Shown one piece after another: positions 6,974-64,000 of a DNA stretch of 64,000 bases. The DNA is from a virus. Under the pieces are notes generated by a model that did not search any database, was not told the origin of the DNA, and worked only from the letters and a program-made list of their open reading frames with translations. The DNA is taken from positions 1-64,000 of the IMG/VR virus record IMGVR_UViG_3300035661_000025; one strand, 5' to 3'. How positions within the stretch are numbered: the stretch's first letter is position 1; each line of letters begins with the position of its first letter. The position numbers and the translations under genes were made by a program.

Positions 6974-7145
6974 GCACATCGCAAGATATTCGGACTAATT
7001 AAAATAATTCTTTGTATTCATTATAGCGAACCACAACCAAGATCTATAGCTATTTTGGGTTTAGGAAACACTACAAATAACACAATTAACAAATATTTAA
7101 GCAAATAAATGATATAATATAAAATATATTTCAATAAGGAAATAA

Positions 7146-9026
7146 ATGACTAAAAAAACCGTAGAACAAACGTATAAAAAATTAACAGATATAGAACATG
7201 TACTACACAGACCAGGCACCTACGTTGGTAATACTAAACCACATAAAACTTCATTATTCGTTCCTAAATCGTTAGATTCATATGAGATGGAATACAAAGA
7301 AGTAAATTTTATTCCGGCATTCGTCAAATTGTTTGATGAGGTAATAACCAACGCTGTAGATGAATCTAAACGGCCGGGAACTAAACTTAATACAGTCCGA
7401 GTTAATATAGAAGATGGTAATATTACTGTTTCAGATAACGGGGGGATTCCTGTAGTAATTCATGAAGAATATCAACAATACATTCCAGAAATAATCTTTT
7501 TTGAGCTTCGTTCTGGAAGTAATTATGATGATAATGAAGAGCGTAAAGGTGCAGGAACTAATGGATTGGGGTCTAAATTAACTAACATTTTTTCTACAAA
7601 ATTCTCTGTTTCTACATGTGATGGCATTAACAAATTTCATCAAGAATCTACAAAAAATCTACATGTAAAAAGTGCCGTTAAAATATCTAAAGGTTCTAAG
7701 AACGGAACCACAATCTCATACACGCCAGATTATTCTTATTTTAAAATGTATAACGAAGCTGGTGAATTGGGATTAGATGATATTCACACTCGTTTGATTT
7801 ATAAACGTGTATTGGATGTTGCCGGGTGTAATGAAAATCTTAAGGTATATTTTAATGATGTTAAAATAGATATCAAAAACTTCCAAGAGTATTCAAAATT
7901 TTTCTATCCTGACGTTATATTCGATAAAGATAATGAATGGGATATTGGTGTTGGGTATTCAGAAGAAGGATTTTTACATAGCTCCTTTGTCAATTCTGTT
8001 TGGACTCACAAAGGCGGAAATCATGTTGAGTTCGTAAGTATGAACATTATTAATAAAATTCGAGAGTTTATTAATAAAAAATACAAAACTGATATTAAAC
8101 CATCAGATATTCGCAATCATTTATTTTTGTTTGTTAATTCAAGTGTAATCAATCCTGCATTTGATAGTCAAACTAAAGAATTTTTAATAACAGAAGCCAA
8201 AGAGTTTAACGGAAAAGGCGAAAGATATTCTTATGTACCTACTCAATCATTTTTAAATAAAGTATTTAAATCTGAAATTGTAGAAAGTATATCTGACTGG
8301 TTAGATAAAAAAGCTAAGGCAGATGAAAATAGAGAGCTTAGAAAATTAAATTCTTCTTTAAAAGCTAAAACAGTAGAAGGTTTGATTGATGCAACTGGAA
8401 CAGATCGTAAAAAATGTATCTTAGGATTATTTGAAGGTATGAGTGCATTAAACGGTGTTAGAAAATTCCGAAATGCACAAACATTCGCTGCTTTCCCTTT
8501 AGGTGGTAAATTCATAAATGTTTCTGAAATGAAACCGAAAGATGTAATTGCTAATGAAGAAGCTCAGAAGATTATGGCGGCGATAGGTCTTAAAATGGGT
8601 GAAGAACCTGATTGGGAAAATTTAAGATATGGAGAAATTCATTTTTATGTAGATGCGGATACTGATGGTACTTCTATTGCTGCATTGCTTATCAATTTCT
8701 TTTATAAATTTTGGCCTCAATTATTTGAAAAAGGCATGATGTATTTAGTCCTTACACCAATTGTAGTATCTACAAAAGGTAAAGAAATCAAACATTGGTA
8801 TTCTGAAGCAGATTTTGAAGATTTCGTAAACTCAGGTAATTCAAAAGGTTGGAATTCATTATACAAAAAAGGGTTATCTGCTCTTGATGATTACTCATAT
8901 AAAGAAATGTTAGATAACCCTAAGAAAGTTTTATTCTCTCCAGATGAACTTACCGCAAAAACTTTAGAAATTTGGTTCGGTAAAAAAGATAACACTGAAC
9001 GAAAAGTATTATTGTCTAAAGAATAA
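7146..9026 (+). CDS. Type IIA topoisomerase large subunit (gp39+gp60 fused)
   Basis: EHVLHRPGTYVG, GHKL motifs, EGMSA, PLGGK, DADTDG, KGL. Confidence 0.95.
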   Translation: MTKKTVEQTYKKLTDIEHVLHRPGTYVGNTKPHKTSLFVPKSLDSYEMEYKEVNFIPAFVKLFDEVITNAVDESKRPGTKLNTVRVNIEDGNITVSDNGGIPVVIHEEYQQYIPEIIFFELRSGSNYDDNEERKGAGTNGLGSKLTNIFSTKFSVSTCDGINKFHQESTKNLHVKSAVKISKGSKNGTTISYTPDYSYFKMYNEAGELGLDDIHTRLIYKRVLDVAGCNENLKVYFNDVKIDIKNFQEYSKFFYPDVIFDKDNEWDIGVGYSEEGFLHSSFVNSVWTHKGGNHVEFVSMNIINKIREFINKKYKTDIKPSDIRNHLFLFVNSSVINPAFDSQTKEFLITEAKEFNGKGERYSYVPTQSFLNKVFKSEIVESISDWLDKKAKADENRELRKLNSSLKAKTVEGLIDATGTDRKKCILGLFEGMSALNGVRKFRNAQTFAAFPLGGKFINVSEMKPKDVIANEEAQKIMAAIGLKMGEEPDWENLRYGEIHFYVDADTDGTSIAALLINFFYKFWPQLFEKGMMYLVLTPIVVSTKGKEIKHWYSEADFEDFVNSGNSKGWNSLYKKGLSALDDYSYKEMLDNPKKVLFSPDELTAKTLEIWFGKKDNTERKVLLSKE

Positions 9027-57714: not shown

Positions 57715-58968
57715 GTGAAAACTGCAGGAAATAGATTTTATTTTGAAGAAATTGTAGCAAATATGATAGATCCTACAAATAATCTACAATTTTATGCACA
57801 TTTATTGGCTCAATGTAAAATTTCGATGGATAAATCTTTTAGAGCCCCTGCAGGTGTTTATTTTGATACTTATACATATGGTTTGGTTATAAATCCAATT
57901 CTGTTCAATAAATTTACAAAAAAAGAAAAAGTAGCTATTTTAATTCATGAAGCGTTTCATATAGCATACAATCATGTAACAGTTAGAAAAAAAGATGACC
58001 ATGAAAGATGGAATTATGCTACAGATATAGCTATAAATCAGCTAATCAAAGATCTTCCAAAAACAGCTCTTCATTATAGTCAATTTGATTTACCTGCAGG
58101 ATTTTCGGCAGAGCAATATTATATTGCATTACTTGATAATGAGAAATATAATCAGAAAAAAGAGCAAGATGAAAAGCTAAAAAAACAGATGGAAGAATTG
58201 TTTGAAGAAGCAATTAAGAAAGGATCTTTAGATGTAGATTCTGATGAATGTTTTGGAGATGGTTCTGAAATTGATATACCTTTTGATATACCGATTGATG
58301 CTCATGATAAAGAATCAGAAGGGGATGAAGAATATAGAAAAGAAGTTACCAAAAATATGTTAGAAAAAGCCTCTGAAAAATCTAGAGGAAATGAACCAAG
58401 CGATTACGCTGACATGATTTCTTTATATACAAAAAAAGCTGTGGTTGATTGGCGCAAAGAATTGAGACGGATCGTTGGAAACAAAAAAGCAAATAAACGT
58501 AGAACAATCATGCGTCCAGATCGAAGATTCCCTAATAGAGAAGAAATTAAAGGAATAACTAAAGATCGTATATTTGACTTAATTGTAGTCATGGATGTTT
58601 CTGGCTCTATGCAAGACAAAATGTTGGCTGATGGTTTGAATGAAATTAAAGAAATTTGTAAATTGACTAATTCAAATCTAAAAGTTATTCAAGTCGATAC
58701 AGATATTCATGAAGTAACTGAGGTAACAAAAACAACCACTAAATTTAATAGATCAGCTCATGGCGGAACTAGAATTTACCCAGCAATTGAATATATTAGA
58801 GATAATAAAATAGACCACAACGCTATAGTAATAATTAGTGATATGTGGATAGAATCATCAACAGAGTGGAAAATTCCTCCAAAAGTACCTTGTTTTTTCT
58901 TAAACACTTCAGGTAAAGATTGGGATGGATTTTCTAAATTTAAAAATTTTAAAAATTACCGTATATAA
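57715..58968 (+). CDS. HExxH metallopeptidase-like + VWA protein (DUF2201 type)
   Basis: HEAFH, WNYATDIAIN, DVSGS MIDAS, GGT, ISD. Confidence 0.88.
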   Translation: MKTAGNRFYFEEIVANMIDPTNNLQFYAHLLAQCKISMDKSFRAPAGVYFDTYTYGLVINPILFNKFTKKEKVAILIHEAFHIAYNHVTVRKKDDHERWNYATDIAINQLIKDLPKTALHYSQFDLPAGFSAEQYYIALLDNEKYNQKKEQDEKLKKQMEELFEEAIKKGSLDVDSDECFGDGSEIDIPFDIPIDAHDKESEGDEEYRKEVTKNMLEKASEKSRGNEPSDYADMISLYTKKAVVDWRKELRRIVGNKKANKRRTIMRPDRRFPNREEIKGITKDRIFDLIVVMDVSGSMQDKMLADGLNEIKEICKLTNSNLKVIQVDTDIHEVTEVTKTTTKFNRSAHGGTRIYPAIEYIRDNKIDHNAIVIISDMWIESSTEWKIPPKVPCFFLNTSGKDWDGFSKFKNFKNYRI

Positions 58969-58979
58969 AGAAGAAAAAA

Positions 58980-59711
58980 ATGAACATTAAATTGCGAGAC
59001 AATTTACATGAACTTAAACAAAAATTGCTACAGAACGTGTTATGTATTTCTGATACTCATTTCGGGCATGTAAAAGTCTTTGAGAAATTTGAACCAATTA
59101 GAAAAACTTATACATTATCTAAAGGTAAGCAAACATTAAAAGATTTTGAAGATCTTATGGTAGAAAACTGGAATGAAACTGTTTTTGATTCTGATACTTT
59201 AATTCATTTAGGTGATGTATGTATTGATAAAATGAACCCGACAAAAACTGAAGAAAACCTAGCAATATCTTTAAAGTTGGAAGGGGAATCATTAATCTTA
59301 ATTAAAGGCAATCATGATAAATCTGATAATTCTCTTTATTATCAAAACGGATGGAATTTCGTAATTGATTGTCCAGTAATTTTATTAGATAATCCTAAAA
59401 TCATAGACAATGCTCCAGGACTAGCTCATTGTATTATAATTGATATAAACGGCAAAAGGGTAATGTTTTCCCATTTTGGAATCCACCAATATAATGAAAA
59501 CTTTGAGGGAAAATATAGAGAACCATTTAGATATTTGACCAAATTATACAATGATTATAAATGTGATTATAATATCCATGGACATAGTCATTCAAATGCT
59601 ATTAACTCAGAAAAATCATTTAACTGTAGTGTTGAAGTAATAAACTTCACACCTAAAAAATTGACAGATATTTTCGCTGTTTTAACTAAATTTAAGAATA
59701 AACTGTTATAA
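58980..59711 (+). CDS. Calcineurin-like metallophosphoesterase
   Basis: SDTHFGH, LGD, GNHD, HGHSH. Confidence 0.88.
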   Translation: MNIKLRDNLHELKQKLLQNVLCISDTHFGHVKVFEKFEPIRKTYTLSKGKQTLKDFEDLMVENWNETVFDSDTLIHLGDVCIDKMNPTKTEENLAISLKLEGESLILIKGNHDKSDNSLYYQNGWNFVIDCPVILLDNPKIIDNAPGLAHCIIIDINGKRVMFSHFGIHQYNENFEGKYREPFRYLTKLYNDYKCDYNIHGHSHSNAINSEKSFNCSVEVINFTPKKLTDIFAVLTKFKNKLL

Positions 59712-59737
59712 TAATATACAAAATAAAAGGAAAGAAT

Positions 59738-60589
59738 ATGACCTCAAAAATTCAAGAAAAAGACCCATTCGGTCATAGAATTAAAGAATATGAAGCAAGT
59801 GCAGAGATTTATTTGGATAAATCCAAATACTCCATCATGCGAATTGATGGGCACGGCTTTTCTAAATGGACGAAAGGTTTCTCAAAACCTTTCGATGAAT
59901 TTTTAGCAAATGCATTAGCAGAAACAGCTAGAGCATTGATGGATGAATTTAAAGCAGTTTGCGCTTATTCTCAATCTGACGAAATCACCTTGATTTTTGC
60001 TCCAGATGATAACTTGATTTATTCTGGAAGAATTCAAAAACTAACTTCATTAGCGGCATCATTTGCTTCAATGAAGTTCAATGAATTAATCAGAGAAACT
60101 CTTAGTAAATTATACACTGAGAAAGAAGGTTTGATGCGTGTTAGATCTGCTTCTGTTGAATTATCTAAAGAATATGATAAAATTAACAATAAGGTTTCTT
60201 TTTTGGAGACAAAAATTGGAAGAGCATTTTTTGATGCTCGAGTTTTTCAAGTTCCAGATAAAACTGAGGCATTTAATTCACTTTTATGGAGAACCAGAGA
60301 TTGTGAACGAAACTCTAAAAACGTTTTTGCTCAAAGTATTCTATCCCATAAAGAATGTCAAAACAAAACAAGCAATGAACTAGTTGAGATATGTGAAGAG
60401 CTTGGTCATTTTTGGAGCGATATTCCAGATAAATACAAATATGGAATTCTTTGGAAAAAAGAAACGTATTTGAAACAGCCAGAAAACCCAGAGTTAGAAC
60501 CATGTTTCAGAACAAGATTCATCCAAATCATTAAGAGATTGAATTACTCAGACGAGAATGTTGAAATGGTGCTTTGTAATAAACTTTAA
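59738..60589 (+). CDS. tRNA-His guanylyltransferase / Thg1-like 3'-5' polymerase
   Basis: RIDGHGFS, YSQSDEI, GRIQKL, FDAR, WR..D. Confidence 0.92.
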   Translation: MTSKIQEKDPFGHRIKEYEASAEIYLDKSKYSIMRIDGHGFSKWTKGFSKPFDEFLANALAETARALMDEFKAVCAYSQSDEITLIFAPDDNLIYSGRIQKLTSLAASFASMKFNELIRETLSKLYTEKEGLMRVRSASVELSKEYDKINNKVSFLETKIGRAFFDARVFQVPDKTEAFNSLLWRTRDCERNSKNVFAQSILSHKECQNKTSNELVEICEELGHFWSDIPDKYKYGILWKKETYLKQPENPELEPCFRTRFIQIIKRLNYSDENVEMVLCNKL

Positions 60590-60736
60590 TAAGTTTCAAA
60601 GGTAATTTCTGTTATAATTAAATGTAAGAAAGAAGGAGTCCTATGGCGTATTTTTTAACAATTACATTCATTGCTATAATGATGTATGGCGTATTTTCAT
60701 CTTGTAATGTATTTTCAGAATTGAAGGGTAGAATAA

Positions 60737-61111
60737 ATGTTAATTAGCAATATACGAAGTGTATTAGAGATTTGTTTCAAATCTAATGAAACTTTAATGA
60801 TTGAAGGCCCTCATGGGATTGGAAAATCAGAGGTTGTAGCTAATTTTGCTACAGAAAATAATATGCATAATGAAACATTATTCTTGTCCAACCAAGAAGT
60901 GGGTGATTTGATTGGTATGCCACGTTCAATAGAACGTAATGGTGAGGTTATTCATACATGGACGAAACCTATTTGGTTACAAAAAATGGAAGAAGCGGTT
61001 ATGCCCGCTAAATTCGATGTAGATGATTTAGAATTTTCGGATGAGGACTTCAAGGCTTTCGTTTACTCAAAACTAAAGGAATTGAATGAAGTTAGTAAGG
61101 GACAAATATAA
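60737..61111 (+). CDS. MoxR-like AAA+ ATPase, N-terminal half
   Basis: Walker A GPHGIGKS, EVGDLIGMP, KPIW; no Walker B. Confidence 0.85.
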   Translation: MLISNIRSVLEICFKSNETLMIEGPHGIGKSEVVANFATENNMHNETLFLSNQEVGDLIGMPRSIERNGEVIHTWTKPIWLQKMEEAVMPAKFDVDDLEFSDEDFKAFVYSKLKELNEVSKGQI

Positions 61112-61613
61112 AGATATAATCCCAGAAGATAAGTTATTTTATATTGAACAAACAGATAAAAAAAGTTTAATAAAATATCTTTCTTTAAAACTAAAAGAGG
61201 AAACTCAAGAGTTTATAGATACTGGATTGACATCTCTAGAAGAACTAGCGGATATTATGGAAGTTTTAGATACCATAATGGAAACATTTGGAATCAATCC
61301 TGATGAGTTGGCGAATGTAGCTAAAAATAAAAATGAAGAAAAAGGGTCTTTTAAAGATTATCTTCTATATGATGATTCTGTTCCAGAAGAAGCAAAAAAT
61401 AATGGCGGAAGCACAGATTATTATAAACTTCCTGCGGGAGCTAAAGATTTGCAAGATCTCATTGAATTTAAAAATATGAACTTTTCTCAAGGTAATATAT
61501 TCAAAGCTATGTATAGATCTGGCGTAGAGCATCATTCGACATATGAAAGAGATTTGAATAAAATTATTTTCTTTGCAAAAAGAGAGTTAAACCGAATTAA
61601 AGGAGACTCATGA
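61086..61613 (+). CDS. MazG/PRA-PH-like pyrophosphatase fused to small DUF3310-like domain
   Basis: KLVRDK, EELADIMEV; GGSTDYY..DLIE..MNFSQGNIFKA. Confidence 0.75.
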   Translation: MKLVRDKYKDIIPEDKLFYIEQTDKKSLIKYLSLKLKEETQEFIDTGLTSLEELADIMEVLDTIMETFGINPDELANVAKNKNEEKGSFKDYLLYDDSVPEEAKNNGGSTDYYKLPAGAKDLQDLIEFKNMNFSQGNIFKAMYRSGVEHHSTYERDLNKIIFFAKRELNRIKGDS

Positions 61614-62134
61614 AAGTAATAAATTTTTTCGGCGGTCCAGGTACCGGAAAAAGCACTACAGCTGCAGGATTGTTTCATTTAATGAAAACAATGGGTTATA
61701 AAGTAGAATTGGTAACAGAATACGCCAAAGACGTAGTTTATCAAGAATCATTTTTTAAACTTAAAGATCAATTGTATATTTTTACTAAACAACATCATAA
61801 GCTGTGGAAACTTAGAGGAAAAGTAGATTATGTTATAACGGATAGCCCGTTATTGTTATCGTTACATTACTTTCAAGAAAACCCCATTTATAATGAAGAT
61901 AATTTCAAAGCTTTTGTTAAAAGCACATATGATGCTTATGACAATATAAATATTTATCTCATCAGGAATTTAGACCATCACCCATATCAGGGATATGGTC
62001 GAACTCAATCAGAATCTGAGGCGATACAGATAGATCGAGATCTTGTAGAGTTGTTGACACAAAATAAGGTTCAATATTCATCTAAACTAATTACTTCAAG
62101 TATTGTTCAGGATGTTTTTGATATAATCAAATAA
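61610..62134 (+). CDS. NadR/Ttd14-like P-loop kinase
   Basis: GGPGTGKST, EYAKD, ITDSP, GR.Q. Confidence 0.75.
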   Translation: MKVINFFGGPGTGKSTTAAGLFHLMKTMGYKVELVTEYAKDVVYQESFFKLKDQLYIFTKQHHKLWKLRGKVDYVITDSPLLLSLHYFQENPIYNEDNFKAFVKSTYDAYDNINIYLIRNLDHHPYQGYGRTQSESEAIQIDRDLVELLTQNKVQYSSKLITSSIVQDVFDIIK

Positions 62135-62279
62135 CCTAAAAATGTAAGGTTATGTAACTTTTGTTTTTCTGGCAAATGAAACAAAAAGATAGTTACAATG
62201 ATTGAAGCACTTTCTTAAGAAAGTAGGTAAAAGATGATAGGTTTCATCTTCCAACGAAATTGAAAAAAGGAGATCAATA

Positions 62280-62993
62280 ATGGTAATAAATCCAATTGAT
62301 AATTTACGGAAATCTATTAGAATTCAACGAAATTTAATAGTCGGTTTAGTAGCACTTGTTGCAGTGACAGTGTATAGCGCTAAATTGTACATTGATTCGT
62401 ATTATAACGACATTCGTATTGAGAATAAGAATGTAAAAGAACTCAATGATAAAAAAGCTCAAGAAATCGAGCGCCTTAAGAAAGATTTGGAAAGAAATGA
62501 AGCTGAGTTGAAGAAATTTAATGTTCAGAAACAAGTAATTTCAATGTATATTAAGGAGAAAAATCCTAAAGTTGATGATAAAGAAGCTGCTTATTATGCT
62601 ACTGAAATCATCAAATCCTCAAACAAGTATGAAAATGTTAAACATACGGTTTTAACCGGTTTAATAGATTCTGAATCTTCTTTTAAGAAGAATGTCAAAC
62701 ACAATGCTGGATCATCTATACACATTGGTGTAAAAGGATTTACAGGAGTTGCTTCAGGTATATGGTCTAAAGAATTGATTGCCAATCATGTTATCCGAAA
62801 ACCAAGTGATTTGGAAATTCCAAAATACGCTATAGCCGCCGGGGCATATATTTTGAACAAATATTCTAAACATCAGTCCACGTTTGAGGCACTAGTTGAT
62901 TATAAATCAGACTGTCCTTTAGGTAGAAAACAAGCTCTAGATGTTTTAGCTAGAGCTGATAAAATCAAAAGAATGGAAGAAAGATATGCTTAA
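62280..62993 (+). CDS. Membrane-anchored lytic transglycosylase (SLT-like)
   Basis: N-terminal TM, coiled coil, SESSF catalytic Glu, GAYIL, AL..Y. Confidence 0.75.
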   Translation: MVINPIDNLRKSIRIQRNLIVGLVALVAVTVYSAKLYIDSYYNDIRIENKNVKELNDKKAQEIERLKKDLERNEAELKKFNVQKQVISMYIKEKNPKVDDKEAAYYATEIIKSSNKYENVKHTVLTGLIDSESSFKKNVKHNAGSSIHIGVKGFTGVASGIWSKELIANHVIRKPSDLEIPKYAIAAGAYILNKYSKHQSTFEALVDYKSDCPLGRKQALDVLARADKIKRMEERYA

Positions 62994-63336
62994 TTTTTTC
63001 AAAAAAGAAAATCCCGATTTTACAATAATCGGGAAAGATTCTACATTTAAAGGCGAGATAACCAGTTCTCATCAAGTTTACATAAAAGGCACTGTAGAAG
63101 CTAATAAAATCATAGCTAAAAGTGTTTTTATTGAAGTTGGAGGTTCTTTAACTGCCGATATAGAATGTTCCGAAGTTTTTATCGCTGGAGTTTATAAAGG
63201 AAACATTAATTGTAGTAATATCACTATTGAACCTACCGGTGACGTAGAATCAGATATTACTTATACATCTATGTTGAATATAAATCCAAACTGCACATAT
63301 AATGGAACCATAAAAAAATCTTTAAATTCCGTTTAA
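62986..63336 (+). CDS. Bactofilin (polymer-forming cytoskeletal protein)
   Basis: TIIGKDSTFKGEI...YIKGTVEA...IAGVYKGNI...GDVESDI beta-helix repeats. Confidence 0.88.
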   Translation: MLNFFKKENPDFTIIGKDSTFKGEITSSHQVYIKGTVEANKIIAKSVFIEVGGSLTADIECSEVFIAGVYKGNINCSNITIEPTGDVESDITYTSMLNINPNCTYNGTIKKSLNSV

Positions 63337-63399
63337 ATTATCAGGTTGTTTTAAGCAACAACCTGATATAATAATACAAATAAACCTTCAGGAATGATT

Positions 63400-64000
63400 A
63401 TGATAATAACTCGAGAAATCCTTCAAAACTTATACAATCAGTATTATGAAACAGACCACAGTCTGTTGAGCAAACACAACACTCACGTTCATTATTCAAA
63501 AGGTAAACACACCTCATTATTACTAGATGAGTTAAATCGTGCACCATTGGATATAAGACAAGCTGCACTTCAATTAATCCTAAGCAAACAAATACATCAA
63601 CATACATTACCTTATTTTAAAGGTATTCCGGCTATGGTTACAGCTTGTATTAATCCAGAAGATGGATATCAAGTTGAAGCTATGGACCCAGCATTGCTAG
63701 ACAGATTTTTAACATTAAATGTTACTGTTGATGCAAACGCTTGGCTAAAATGGGCGGAAAATCATGATGTCTTAAAAGTTATTAGATCTTTCATTCGTGA
63801 TAATCCAGACAAATTACATTGGAGTTCAGTAGAAGTTCAAGATTCAAAATATCCTACTCCACGAGCATGGACTAAATTATCGGACGTTCTTAAAAACATC
63901 CCAAATGCCAAGAAAAATCCTTTGACTTTAGATTTAATAAAAGGAAAAATTGGAGAGAGTATTGGGACTCGTTTTTATACTTATTTTTGTAAATTTGATG
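63400..64000 (+). CDS. MoxR-like AAA+ ATPase, C-terminal half (runs off window; not in ORF track)
   Basis: Promoter at 63364, AGGA RBS; Walker B LLLDELNRA, sensor-1 INP, Arg finger DPALLDRF, PTPRAW; no Walker A. Confidence 0.88.
   Translation, partial: MIITREILQNLYNQYYETDHSLLSKHNTHVHYSKGKHTSLLLDELNRAPLDIRQAALQLILSKQIHQHTLPYFKGIPAMVTACINPEDGYQVEAMDPALLDRFLTLNVTVDANAWLKWAENHDVLKVIRSFIRDNPDKLHWSSVEVQDSKYPTPRAWTKLSDVLKNIPNAKKNPLTLDLIKGKIGESIGTRFYTYFCKFD

Follow-up and report, generated by a model that had tools for sequence, protein, structure and literature searches.

A split ATPase gene in an IMG/VR virus contig

The DNA analyzed here (the window, 64,000 nucleotides) comprises bases 1-64000 of the 96.4-kb virus contig IMGVR_UViG_3300035661_000025 of IMG/VR, for which a completeness of ~55% was estimated by CheckV and which has a G+C content of ~29%. 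Nearly all genes of the window are carried by the + strand. An initial annotation, made from the DNA letters of the window, had described two ORFs (open reading frames) at its 3' end as the separately expressed parts of a MoxR-type AAA+ ATPase. The observation was confirmed: the ORF at 60737-61111 (N-half) and the ORF starting at 63400 (C-half), separated by four genes (the cassette), are colinear parts of one AAA_5/MoxR-type ATPase (Table 1).

The N-half was found to carry the Walker A motif and the sequence EVGDLIGMP...KPIW and to end thereafter, as annotated. Its elements are β1, Walker A, α1, β2, the hairpin of the helix-2 insert, α2 and the first half of an insert of ~65 amino acids, which forms the tail of the protein (residues ~88-124). 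Walker A (GxxGxGK[ST]) reads G24-P-H-G27-I-G29-K30-S, and the residues G24, H26, G27, G29 and K30 are invariant across 14 N-half sequences. The elements that are missing from the N-half are encoded by the C-half in the expected order. The second half of the insert (the head, residues ~1-36) is followed by Walker B (LLLDELNRA), sensor 1 (ACINP), LLDRF, PTPRAW, the lid and a helical C-terminal domain. D45 and E46 of Walker B, N87 of sensor 1, R104 of LLDRF and R157 of PTPRAW are invariant in 9 C-half sequences; judged by homology only, R104 would be the arginine finger and R157 sensor 2. Translation of the C-half may start at ATG 63394 (319 amino acids) or at ATG 63400 (317 amino acids). An AGGA sequence is located 6 nucleotides upstream of 63400, the position at which the protein-database gene call (P0001, 317 amino acids) begins. 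The four genes between the halves were found to be all intact.

Table 1 Features of the split ATPase locus (positions are those of the window unless indicated otherwise)
Feature	Position	Strand	Description
DUF2201_N (metallopeptidase-like) and VWA partner gene	57715..58968	+	Pfam DUF2201_N, 2.3e-20; DUF2201 VWA-like, 6.7e-12
TGTTATAAT promoter-like site	60610..60618	+	After the Thg1 stop; followed by a small ORF (60644) and the N-half
TGCTATAAT second promoter-like site	60672	+	Upstream of the N-half
N-half gene	60737..61111	+	124 amino acids; Walker A GPHGIGKS, EVGDLIGMP...KPIW, then stop
Cassette gene 1	61086..61613	+	175 amino acids; N-terminal part MazG-like (likeness to the L004 ORF 7007-7465)
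Cassette gene 2	61610..62134	+	174 amino acids; AAA_28 P-loop kinase-like (PHROG 2107, 'thymidylate kinase')
Cassette gene 3	62280..62993	+	237 amino acids; SLT lytic transglycosylase
Cassette gene 4	62986..63336	+	116 amino acids; bactofilin
Perfect 12-bp hairpin	63339..63368	+	Directly downstream of the bactofilin stop
TGATATAAT extended -10 promoter-like site	63364..63372	+	28 nucleotides before ATG 63400
C-half gene	63400..64000 in the window, to 64353 on the contig	+	317 amino acids

Colinearity with intact homologues and position of the break

The halves are exactly colinear with intact homologues, because the positions of PHROG 1297 ('ATPase', 356 positions) are divided between them: positions 11-96 match N-half residues 3-90 and positions 97-260 match C-half residues 36-199. 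All GenBank phages matching the N-half also match the C-half, within one unbroken gene. In the intact protein of Vibrio phage phiKT1024 (369 amino acids) N-half residues 1-92 align with residues 1-92 and C-half residues 35-319 with residues 89-368. In the intact gp052 of Alteromonas phage AD45-P1 (435 amino acids) N-half residues 5-124 align with residues 2-126 and C-half residues 5-286 with residues 118-402. Joining of the halves was predicted to give colinearity without gap or overlap, and no gap or overlap of more than 8 residues was found.

Two intact forms occur in this family, with or without the ~65-amino-acid insert, which is located between 'WLQRMxxA' (helix α2) and the Walker B strand (β3). 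Both the end of the N-half and the start of the C-half fall inside this insert. A joint alignment placed the break in a linker of 3-8 residues between '...F.D..F...V...L' and '.TR..L..LY..YY'. In the AlphaFold model of an intact insert-bearing homologue, L013 (mean predicted local distance difference test (pLDDT) score 81.7, ~90 over the insert), the insert was modelled as a small domain consisting of strand-strand-helix, a turn and strand-helix-strand, and the break corresponds to the turn at model residues 109-111. The annotated break in an insertion between Walker A and Walker B was thus confirmed by the alignments and the L013 model, the insertion being a lineage-variable insert. Two loci, L092 and L013, had the appearance of adjacent splits in tblastn, but proved to be intact insert-bearing genes.

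Conservation of the split

When 5.8 billion proteins were searched with the C-half, five non-self clusters of C-half-only proteins were obtained (313-316 amino acids, 52-75% identical), while the next matches were intact proteins showing just 39-41% identity. The N-half search revealed N-half-only proteins of 119-125 amino acids (55-79% identity) that share a common end point. The split is also present in five IMG/VR contigs from five samples. These contigs represent three diverged lineages (L004/L008, L005/L006 and L007), all of which are split, with the halves spaced 2.3-3.8 kb apart. The order of genes is conserved as well: NAD-kinase-like, small membrane proteins, VWA, Thg1-like, N-half, cassette, C-half and PIN-PhoH. 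For relatives at 73-79% identity, the N-half and C-half ORFs were found on contigs of identical size (11,659 nucleotides for one N-half/C-half pair, 14,697 for the other), and both halves were found together on every contig long enough to show both. An independent contig of 22.6 kb from a wastewater run spans 60600-64000 unbroken at ~96% identity, with a 5-nucleotide intergenic deletion only, and sediment contigs join the N-half to the cassette. Conservation of the split in related phages, proposed as a check of the initial annotation, was thus established: three diverged IMG/VR lineages and the ~96%-identical contig keep the layout.

The window originates from a metagenome-assembled viral contig, and a misassembly might have placed the cassette inside a gene. 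However, the same arrangement was found in the five IMG/VR contigs mentioned above and in the 22.6-kb contig, which comes from a different habitat and study, while ORFs of split length occur in several protein sources. The probability of an assembly artefact is therefore considered negligible.

Nei-Gojobori ratios of non-synonymous to synonymous substitution (dN/dS) for L004 versus L006 were 0.10 for the N-half, 0.056 for the C-half, 0.073 for the VWA gene and 0.23 for the Thg1 gene; these ratios are rough, with dS near or above 1 (synonymous sites near saturation), but their direction is clear. Both halves are under purifying selection, with ratios as low as those of the neighbouring genes. 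Of the changes that separate the N-half from that of the ~96%-identical relative, 10 are synonymous and 8 non-synonymous, and the frame is open. These data bear on the possibility that insertion of the block destroyed the gene and that both ORFs are decaying remnants. It would be in agreement with such a pseudogene that 2.3 kb of unrelated genes interrupt the gene and that each half scores below the Pfam AAA thresholds (see below). However, the ORFs have remained open at 52-79% amino acid identity across lineages that are not near-clonal and in which synonymous sites are saturated, dN/dS is 0.06-0.10, and the catalytic residues are all invariant. Decay is thus hardly to be expected here. The split is genuine and evolutionarily stable, and results neither from decay nor from misassembly.

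A further alternative is that an unbroken product is restored, either by split-intein protein trans-splicing, by RNA splicing or by programmed excision of the cassette. Environmental phage-like DNA is known to contain 'fractured genes', in which split inteins occur together with a homing endonuclease between the parts (PMC2677866). The locus resembles these in having an N-terminal part with a tail, inserted gene(s), and a head with a C-terminal part. It differs from them in that there is no match to a Hint/intein domain or an endonuclease, in that tail and head are too short, and in that the matching insert of intact homologues is modelled as an α/β domain that stays in the protein. Indeed, no intein family was detected in either half with Pfam (E < 0.01), consistent with the absence of intein termini that had been noted before. 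Tail and head together are just ~65-70 amino acids long, and intact homologues keep this segment as a folded insert (pLDDT ~90). No Rfam family was matched, so no intron was detected. With regard to excision, no repeats flanking the cassette were found, no recombinase family was matched among the cassette genes, and no nuclease or homing endonuclease family was matched by the cassette genes of the window in Pfam and PHROGs. Furthermore, the two halves are in different reading frames. One sediment contig of 134 nucleotides links 60982 to 63532, with 54 other letters between them. It was rejected as a joined form of the gene, as it matches just 24 and 21 nucleotides at conserved motifs. The contig most likely represents the intact gene of another phage, because its spacer of 54 nucleotides (18 codons) is close to the spacing in insert-less homologues. 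Restoration of a single chain is therefore regarded as very unlikely.

Expression signals

The C-half had been annotated as having its own promoter and ribosome-binding site. Indeed, the C-half is preceded by a ribosome-binding site and by a conserved promoter-like site of the TGnTATAAT type, and the same holds for the N-half (Table 1). As far as can be judged from sequence, each half is thus located behind its own promoter-like site of one class. In L004 and L006 TGATATAAT is present ~27 nucleotides upstream of the C-half start, in surrounding DNA that has diverged, and it also occurs in both at the equivalent place after the Thg1 gene and before the N-half. The promoter-like sites are thus kept in these lineages despite saturated synonymous sites. 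The hairpin that follows the bactofilin gene is found at the equivalent place in L004 and L006 as well.

In the window TGATATAAT occurs 18 times versus 4.2 times expected, with 17 of the 18 copies on the coding strand. TGnTATAAT on the + strand is intergenic in 29 of 33 cases and is typically located 17-31 nucleotides before an ATG. A simple sigma-70 scan performed no better on the window than on shuffles (20 versus 18.3). The uniform TGnTATAAT promoter-leader layout (e.g. at 7110, 9039, 11325, 12947, 15982, 35771, 40450 and 59704) could be used to map the transcription units of this phage. A hydrophobic ORF of 33 codons with its own AGGAG, at 60644-60745, overlaps the start of the N-half; L004 and L006 have small ORFs of dissimilar sequence at the corresponding position.

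Family, fold and VWA partner

The C-half alone scores 16.6 bits with Pfam AAA_5 (PF07728), against a cut-off of 22, and the N-half gives no AAA_5 match. Intact homologues score at or above this threshold (45.6 bits for phiKT1024, 31.1 for L013 and 22.1 for AD45-P1). The split itself reduces the AAA_5 score of each piece. Profiles of the N-half and C-half weakly matched midasin AAA domains, CobS and the solved protein 2r44; the DE..NR, NP and DRF motifs of the C-half align to those of 2r44, although this likeness is weak (E = 0.002). Comparison with MoxR-type folds was made on the intact homologue L013, not on the split pair, and the best Foldseek matches of the L013 model were NorQ (E = 1.5e-8), solved with the VWA domain of NorD, and CbbQ.

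A DUF2201/VWA partner of the ATPase had been annotated upstream of the N-half. The identity of this gene was confirmed by its Pfam matches (Table 1), and it is kept near the ATPase gene in relatives. Of ~200 related loci that were fetched, most have a homologue of the VWA gene at a distance of at most 10 kb from the ATPase gene, and in AD45-P1 the VWA gene lies directly upstream of the ATPase gene. Because of the AAA_5 matches of the homologues, the fold likeness to NorQ and CbbQ and the conserved VWA neighbour, 'MoxR-type ATPase with VWA partner' is a fair label at class level, drawn from sequence and modelled fold. The system is comparable to NorQ-NorD, CbbQ-CbbO and RavA-ViaA in the AAA_5 match and fold (both seen with intact homologues) and in the presence of a VWA gene nearby. 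It differs from them in two respects. To our knowledge the characterised MoxR-class AAA+ ATPases are all single-chain proteins, whereas the ATPase of the window is encoded by two genes. Furthermore, the phage partner has a DUF2201_N metallopeptidase-like domain and not the architecture of NorD or CbbO.

Proposed assembly of the ATPase from two chains

The data support the earlier interpretation of a two-chain protein. It is likely that the locus represents a conserved gene in pieces and that the ATPase is rebuilt from two separate chains. An ancestral phage gene of the MoxR/AAA_5 type, with a folded insert of ~65 amino acids between α2 and β3, would have been interrupted in the turn of this insert by an unrelated gene block. 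The upstream piece would then have gained a stop codon, and the downstream piece a start codon, a ribosome-binding site and a promoter-like site. In the assembled protein the chain of 124 amino acids would contribute β1, Walker A and β2, and the chain of 317 amino acids would contribute β3/Walker B, β4/sensor 1, β5, the arginine finger, sensor 2, the lid and the C-terminal domain. The strand order of the AAA+ core is 5-1-4-3-2. With β1 and β2 on the N-half and β3-β5 on the C-half, the chains would therefore have to co-fold: β2 of the short chain would pair with β3 of the long chain, and β1 would slot into the sheet of the long chain. The N-half tail and the C-half head would re-form the α/β domain of the insert across the chains and may serve as a clamp. 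Such protomers would assemble into the usual ring and would cooperate with the DUF2201/VWA protein, the gene of which lies 1.8 kb upstream, in the manner of NorQ-NorD and CbbQ-CbbO. An ATP site would thus comprise three chains: both halves of one protomer and the C-half of its neighbour, the latter providing the arginine finger.

Complex prediction, which had been suggested as a check, supports binding of the halves. The halves were predicted to join with an ipSAE (interaction prediction score from aligned errors) of 0.79, versus 0.00 for the best of 3 controls; a score of 0.79 is reached by 58 of 80 solved complexes and by 2 of 110 mismatched pairs. Agreement of contacts between runs was at least 97%, and the pLDDT of the partner was at least 85. 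Contacts were predicted between N-half residues 44-48 and C-half residues 38-44 (β2-β3), and between the N-half tail (residues 87-117) and residues 2-18 and 30-36 of the C-half head.

It might be argued that the halves have acquired separate functions, for instance the C-half as a nucleotide-independent VWA adaptor and the N-half as a small P-loop regulator, in view of the fact that each half is separately promoted. Such functions are considered unlikely. The halves co-occur on every contig of sufficient length to include both, and tail and head are conserved and predicted to pack together. Moreover, the Walker A, Walker B, sensor and arginine residues are invariant, which would be unexpected for an inactive adaptor.

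Several points weigh against assembly of one ATPase from the two chains. Neither half by itself meets a Pfam AAA cut-off, and the dN/dS ratios are rough, as indicated above. The complex score may reflect likeness to single-chain AAA+ structures seen by the model during its training. A Rossmann-like core in which β1 inserts into the other chain needs co-folding, which may be inefficient. From the locus and the models we infer assembly in trans, ATPase activity, ring formation, interaction with the partner, a cellular or chaperone role and gating by two promoters.

Other split forms and the history of the insert

Split forms also occur outside the clade of the window, where they are known as ORF calls without DNA context. 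These are the C-half-only proteins P0014, P0029 and P0032 and the N-half-only proteins P0129, P0130 and P0132-P0134. The C-half-only proteins have their initial Met, and the N-half-only proteins their end, at the homologous turn; intact proteins carry other residues there. A phylogenetic tree was built on the shared core, from Walker B to the C-terminus. The clade of the window forms one well-supported group in this tree. The sister of P0014 is an insert-less protein (79% identity in the core) and that of P0029 an intact insert-bearing protein; P0032 is placed beside another insert-less protein. The approximately unbiased (AU) test rejected monophyly of the split forms (p = 6e-5) as well as that of all insert-bearing forms (p = 1e-4), the groups having been named after a first tree was seen.

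The tree would be explained either by many losses of the insert together with repeated splits at the same turn, or by movement of the insert and the split junction between alleles by recombination. It may be speculated that the insert is a portable 'split-tolerance' module, a small domain in two pieces that enables the AAA+ core to withstand a cut and that spreads between phage ATPase alleles by recombination, that the split has been repeated or has moved laterally, and that the two promoters gate the supply of one chain. This extension of the two-chain model is doubtful at present.

Cassette and neighbouring genes

Cassette gene 1 starts within the N-half gene, overlapping its stop by 26 nucleotides. 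The C-terminal ~70 amino acids of its product match a domain that ends several phage kinase PHROGs, and all its PHROG matches are kinase-annotated or of unknown function. The protein resembles a fusion of two ORFs of L004, 7007-7465 (MazG-like) and 7523-7804 (a 'GGxTDYY...' domain of ~90 amino acids), of which only the second part is retained in L006 (4063-4335) and L007. The content of the cassette is thus variable while the split persists, since the parts of gene 1 are fused, separate or lost among the lineages. The cassettes of the lineages consist of a small ORF, AAA_28, SLT and bactofilin, with two further ORFs in L004. An extra ORF of 329 amino acids is located directly after the N-half in L004 (6193-7182); it matches no Pfam family, and nuclease motifs were not looked for.

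The genes for the SLT protein and bactofilin form a translationally overlapped pair in all split relatives (62280-63336 in the window, 8472-9915 in L004 and 4997-6164 in L006). A hydrophobic stretch at the N-terminus of the SLT protein may serve as a membrane anchor. The bactofilin varies in size, from 116 amino acids in the window to 155 in L006 and 247 in L004, where it has a long C-terminal extension.

A gene encoding a fusion of PIN_4 and PhoH follows directly after the C-half (64449 onward on the contig; 2950-3999 in L001) and keeps this position in L004 and L006. The region 58980-60589, which separates the VWA gene from the N-half, encodes a calcineurin-like metallophosphoesterase and a Thg1-like tRNA-His guanylyltransferase. 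Thg1 is kept in the relatives, and the metallophosphoesterase is found in the window phage only.

Occurrence and host

A Campylobacterota context had been proposed for the phage, with intact homologues from this group as the basis for comparison. Intact homologues were indeed available for alignment, but confirmation of such a host was not obtained: among intact relatives for which DNA is available, the best ones belong to marine Vibrio and Alteromonas phages and to uncultured viral contigs. A search for the host via the TonB-dependent receptor gene of the phage revealed no relative. Megablast of the region against GenBank phages gave no match, and neither did a single-protein scan of viral contigs. 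Further contig scans (metagenome contigs, viral contigs with the N-half profile, and genome contigs) yielded nothing beyond intact genes and the known lineages.

Among the public runs X1-X12, near-identical DNA is present in microbial-mat and sediment metagenomes. The ~96%-identical relative is present in wastewater runs of two studies; wastewater runs labelled 'RNA-Seq' were used as contigs, are possibly DNA, and are not informative on expression. Hydrothermal-vent runs contain small shares, covering only 61572-61995.

Precedents and significance

The closest precedent is NrdA, the large subunit of the ribonucleotide reductase of Aeromonas phage Aeh1, the gene of which is split by the homing endonuclease mobE into NrdA-a and NrdA-b (PMC3045599). 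The active enzyme is formed from two polypeptides without RNA or protein splicing, and the tails at the break are needed for activity and were proposed to be interaction domains (PMC3045599). In both phages an enzyme gene has been cut by inserted DNA into two separately translated genes, and the two ORFs of the window phage are likewise colinear with one intact homologue and both conserved. There are also clear differences. In the window, the cut passes through the nucleotide-binding core of an AAA+ protein and places Walker A and Walker B on different chains. The insertion in the window and its related lineages consists of four to six genes, and no homing endonuclease was detected. The tails of the window proteins are halves of a pre-existing folded insert, whereas the Aeh1 tails are new sequence resulting from the insertion. 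Finally, the Aeh1 enzyme is active, while reassembly of the window pair is predicted from a model.

AAA+ ATPases are usually treated as single-chain modules. In the literature searched no natural split AAA+ or MoxR protein with Walker A and Walker B on separately encoded chains was found; coverage was incomplete and this is no proof of absence. Split systems of this type are missed because gene callers and domain searches return a small hypothetical protein and an unannotated ORF. If the two-chain assembly is true, an AAA+ core can be assembled from fragments, and the locus would offer a natural template for the design of split or inducible AAA+ motors. Furthermore, it would represent a second, mechanistically different phage gene in pieces that functions without splicing, beside the one that has been well studied.

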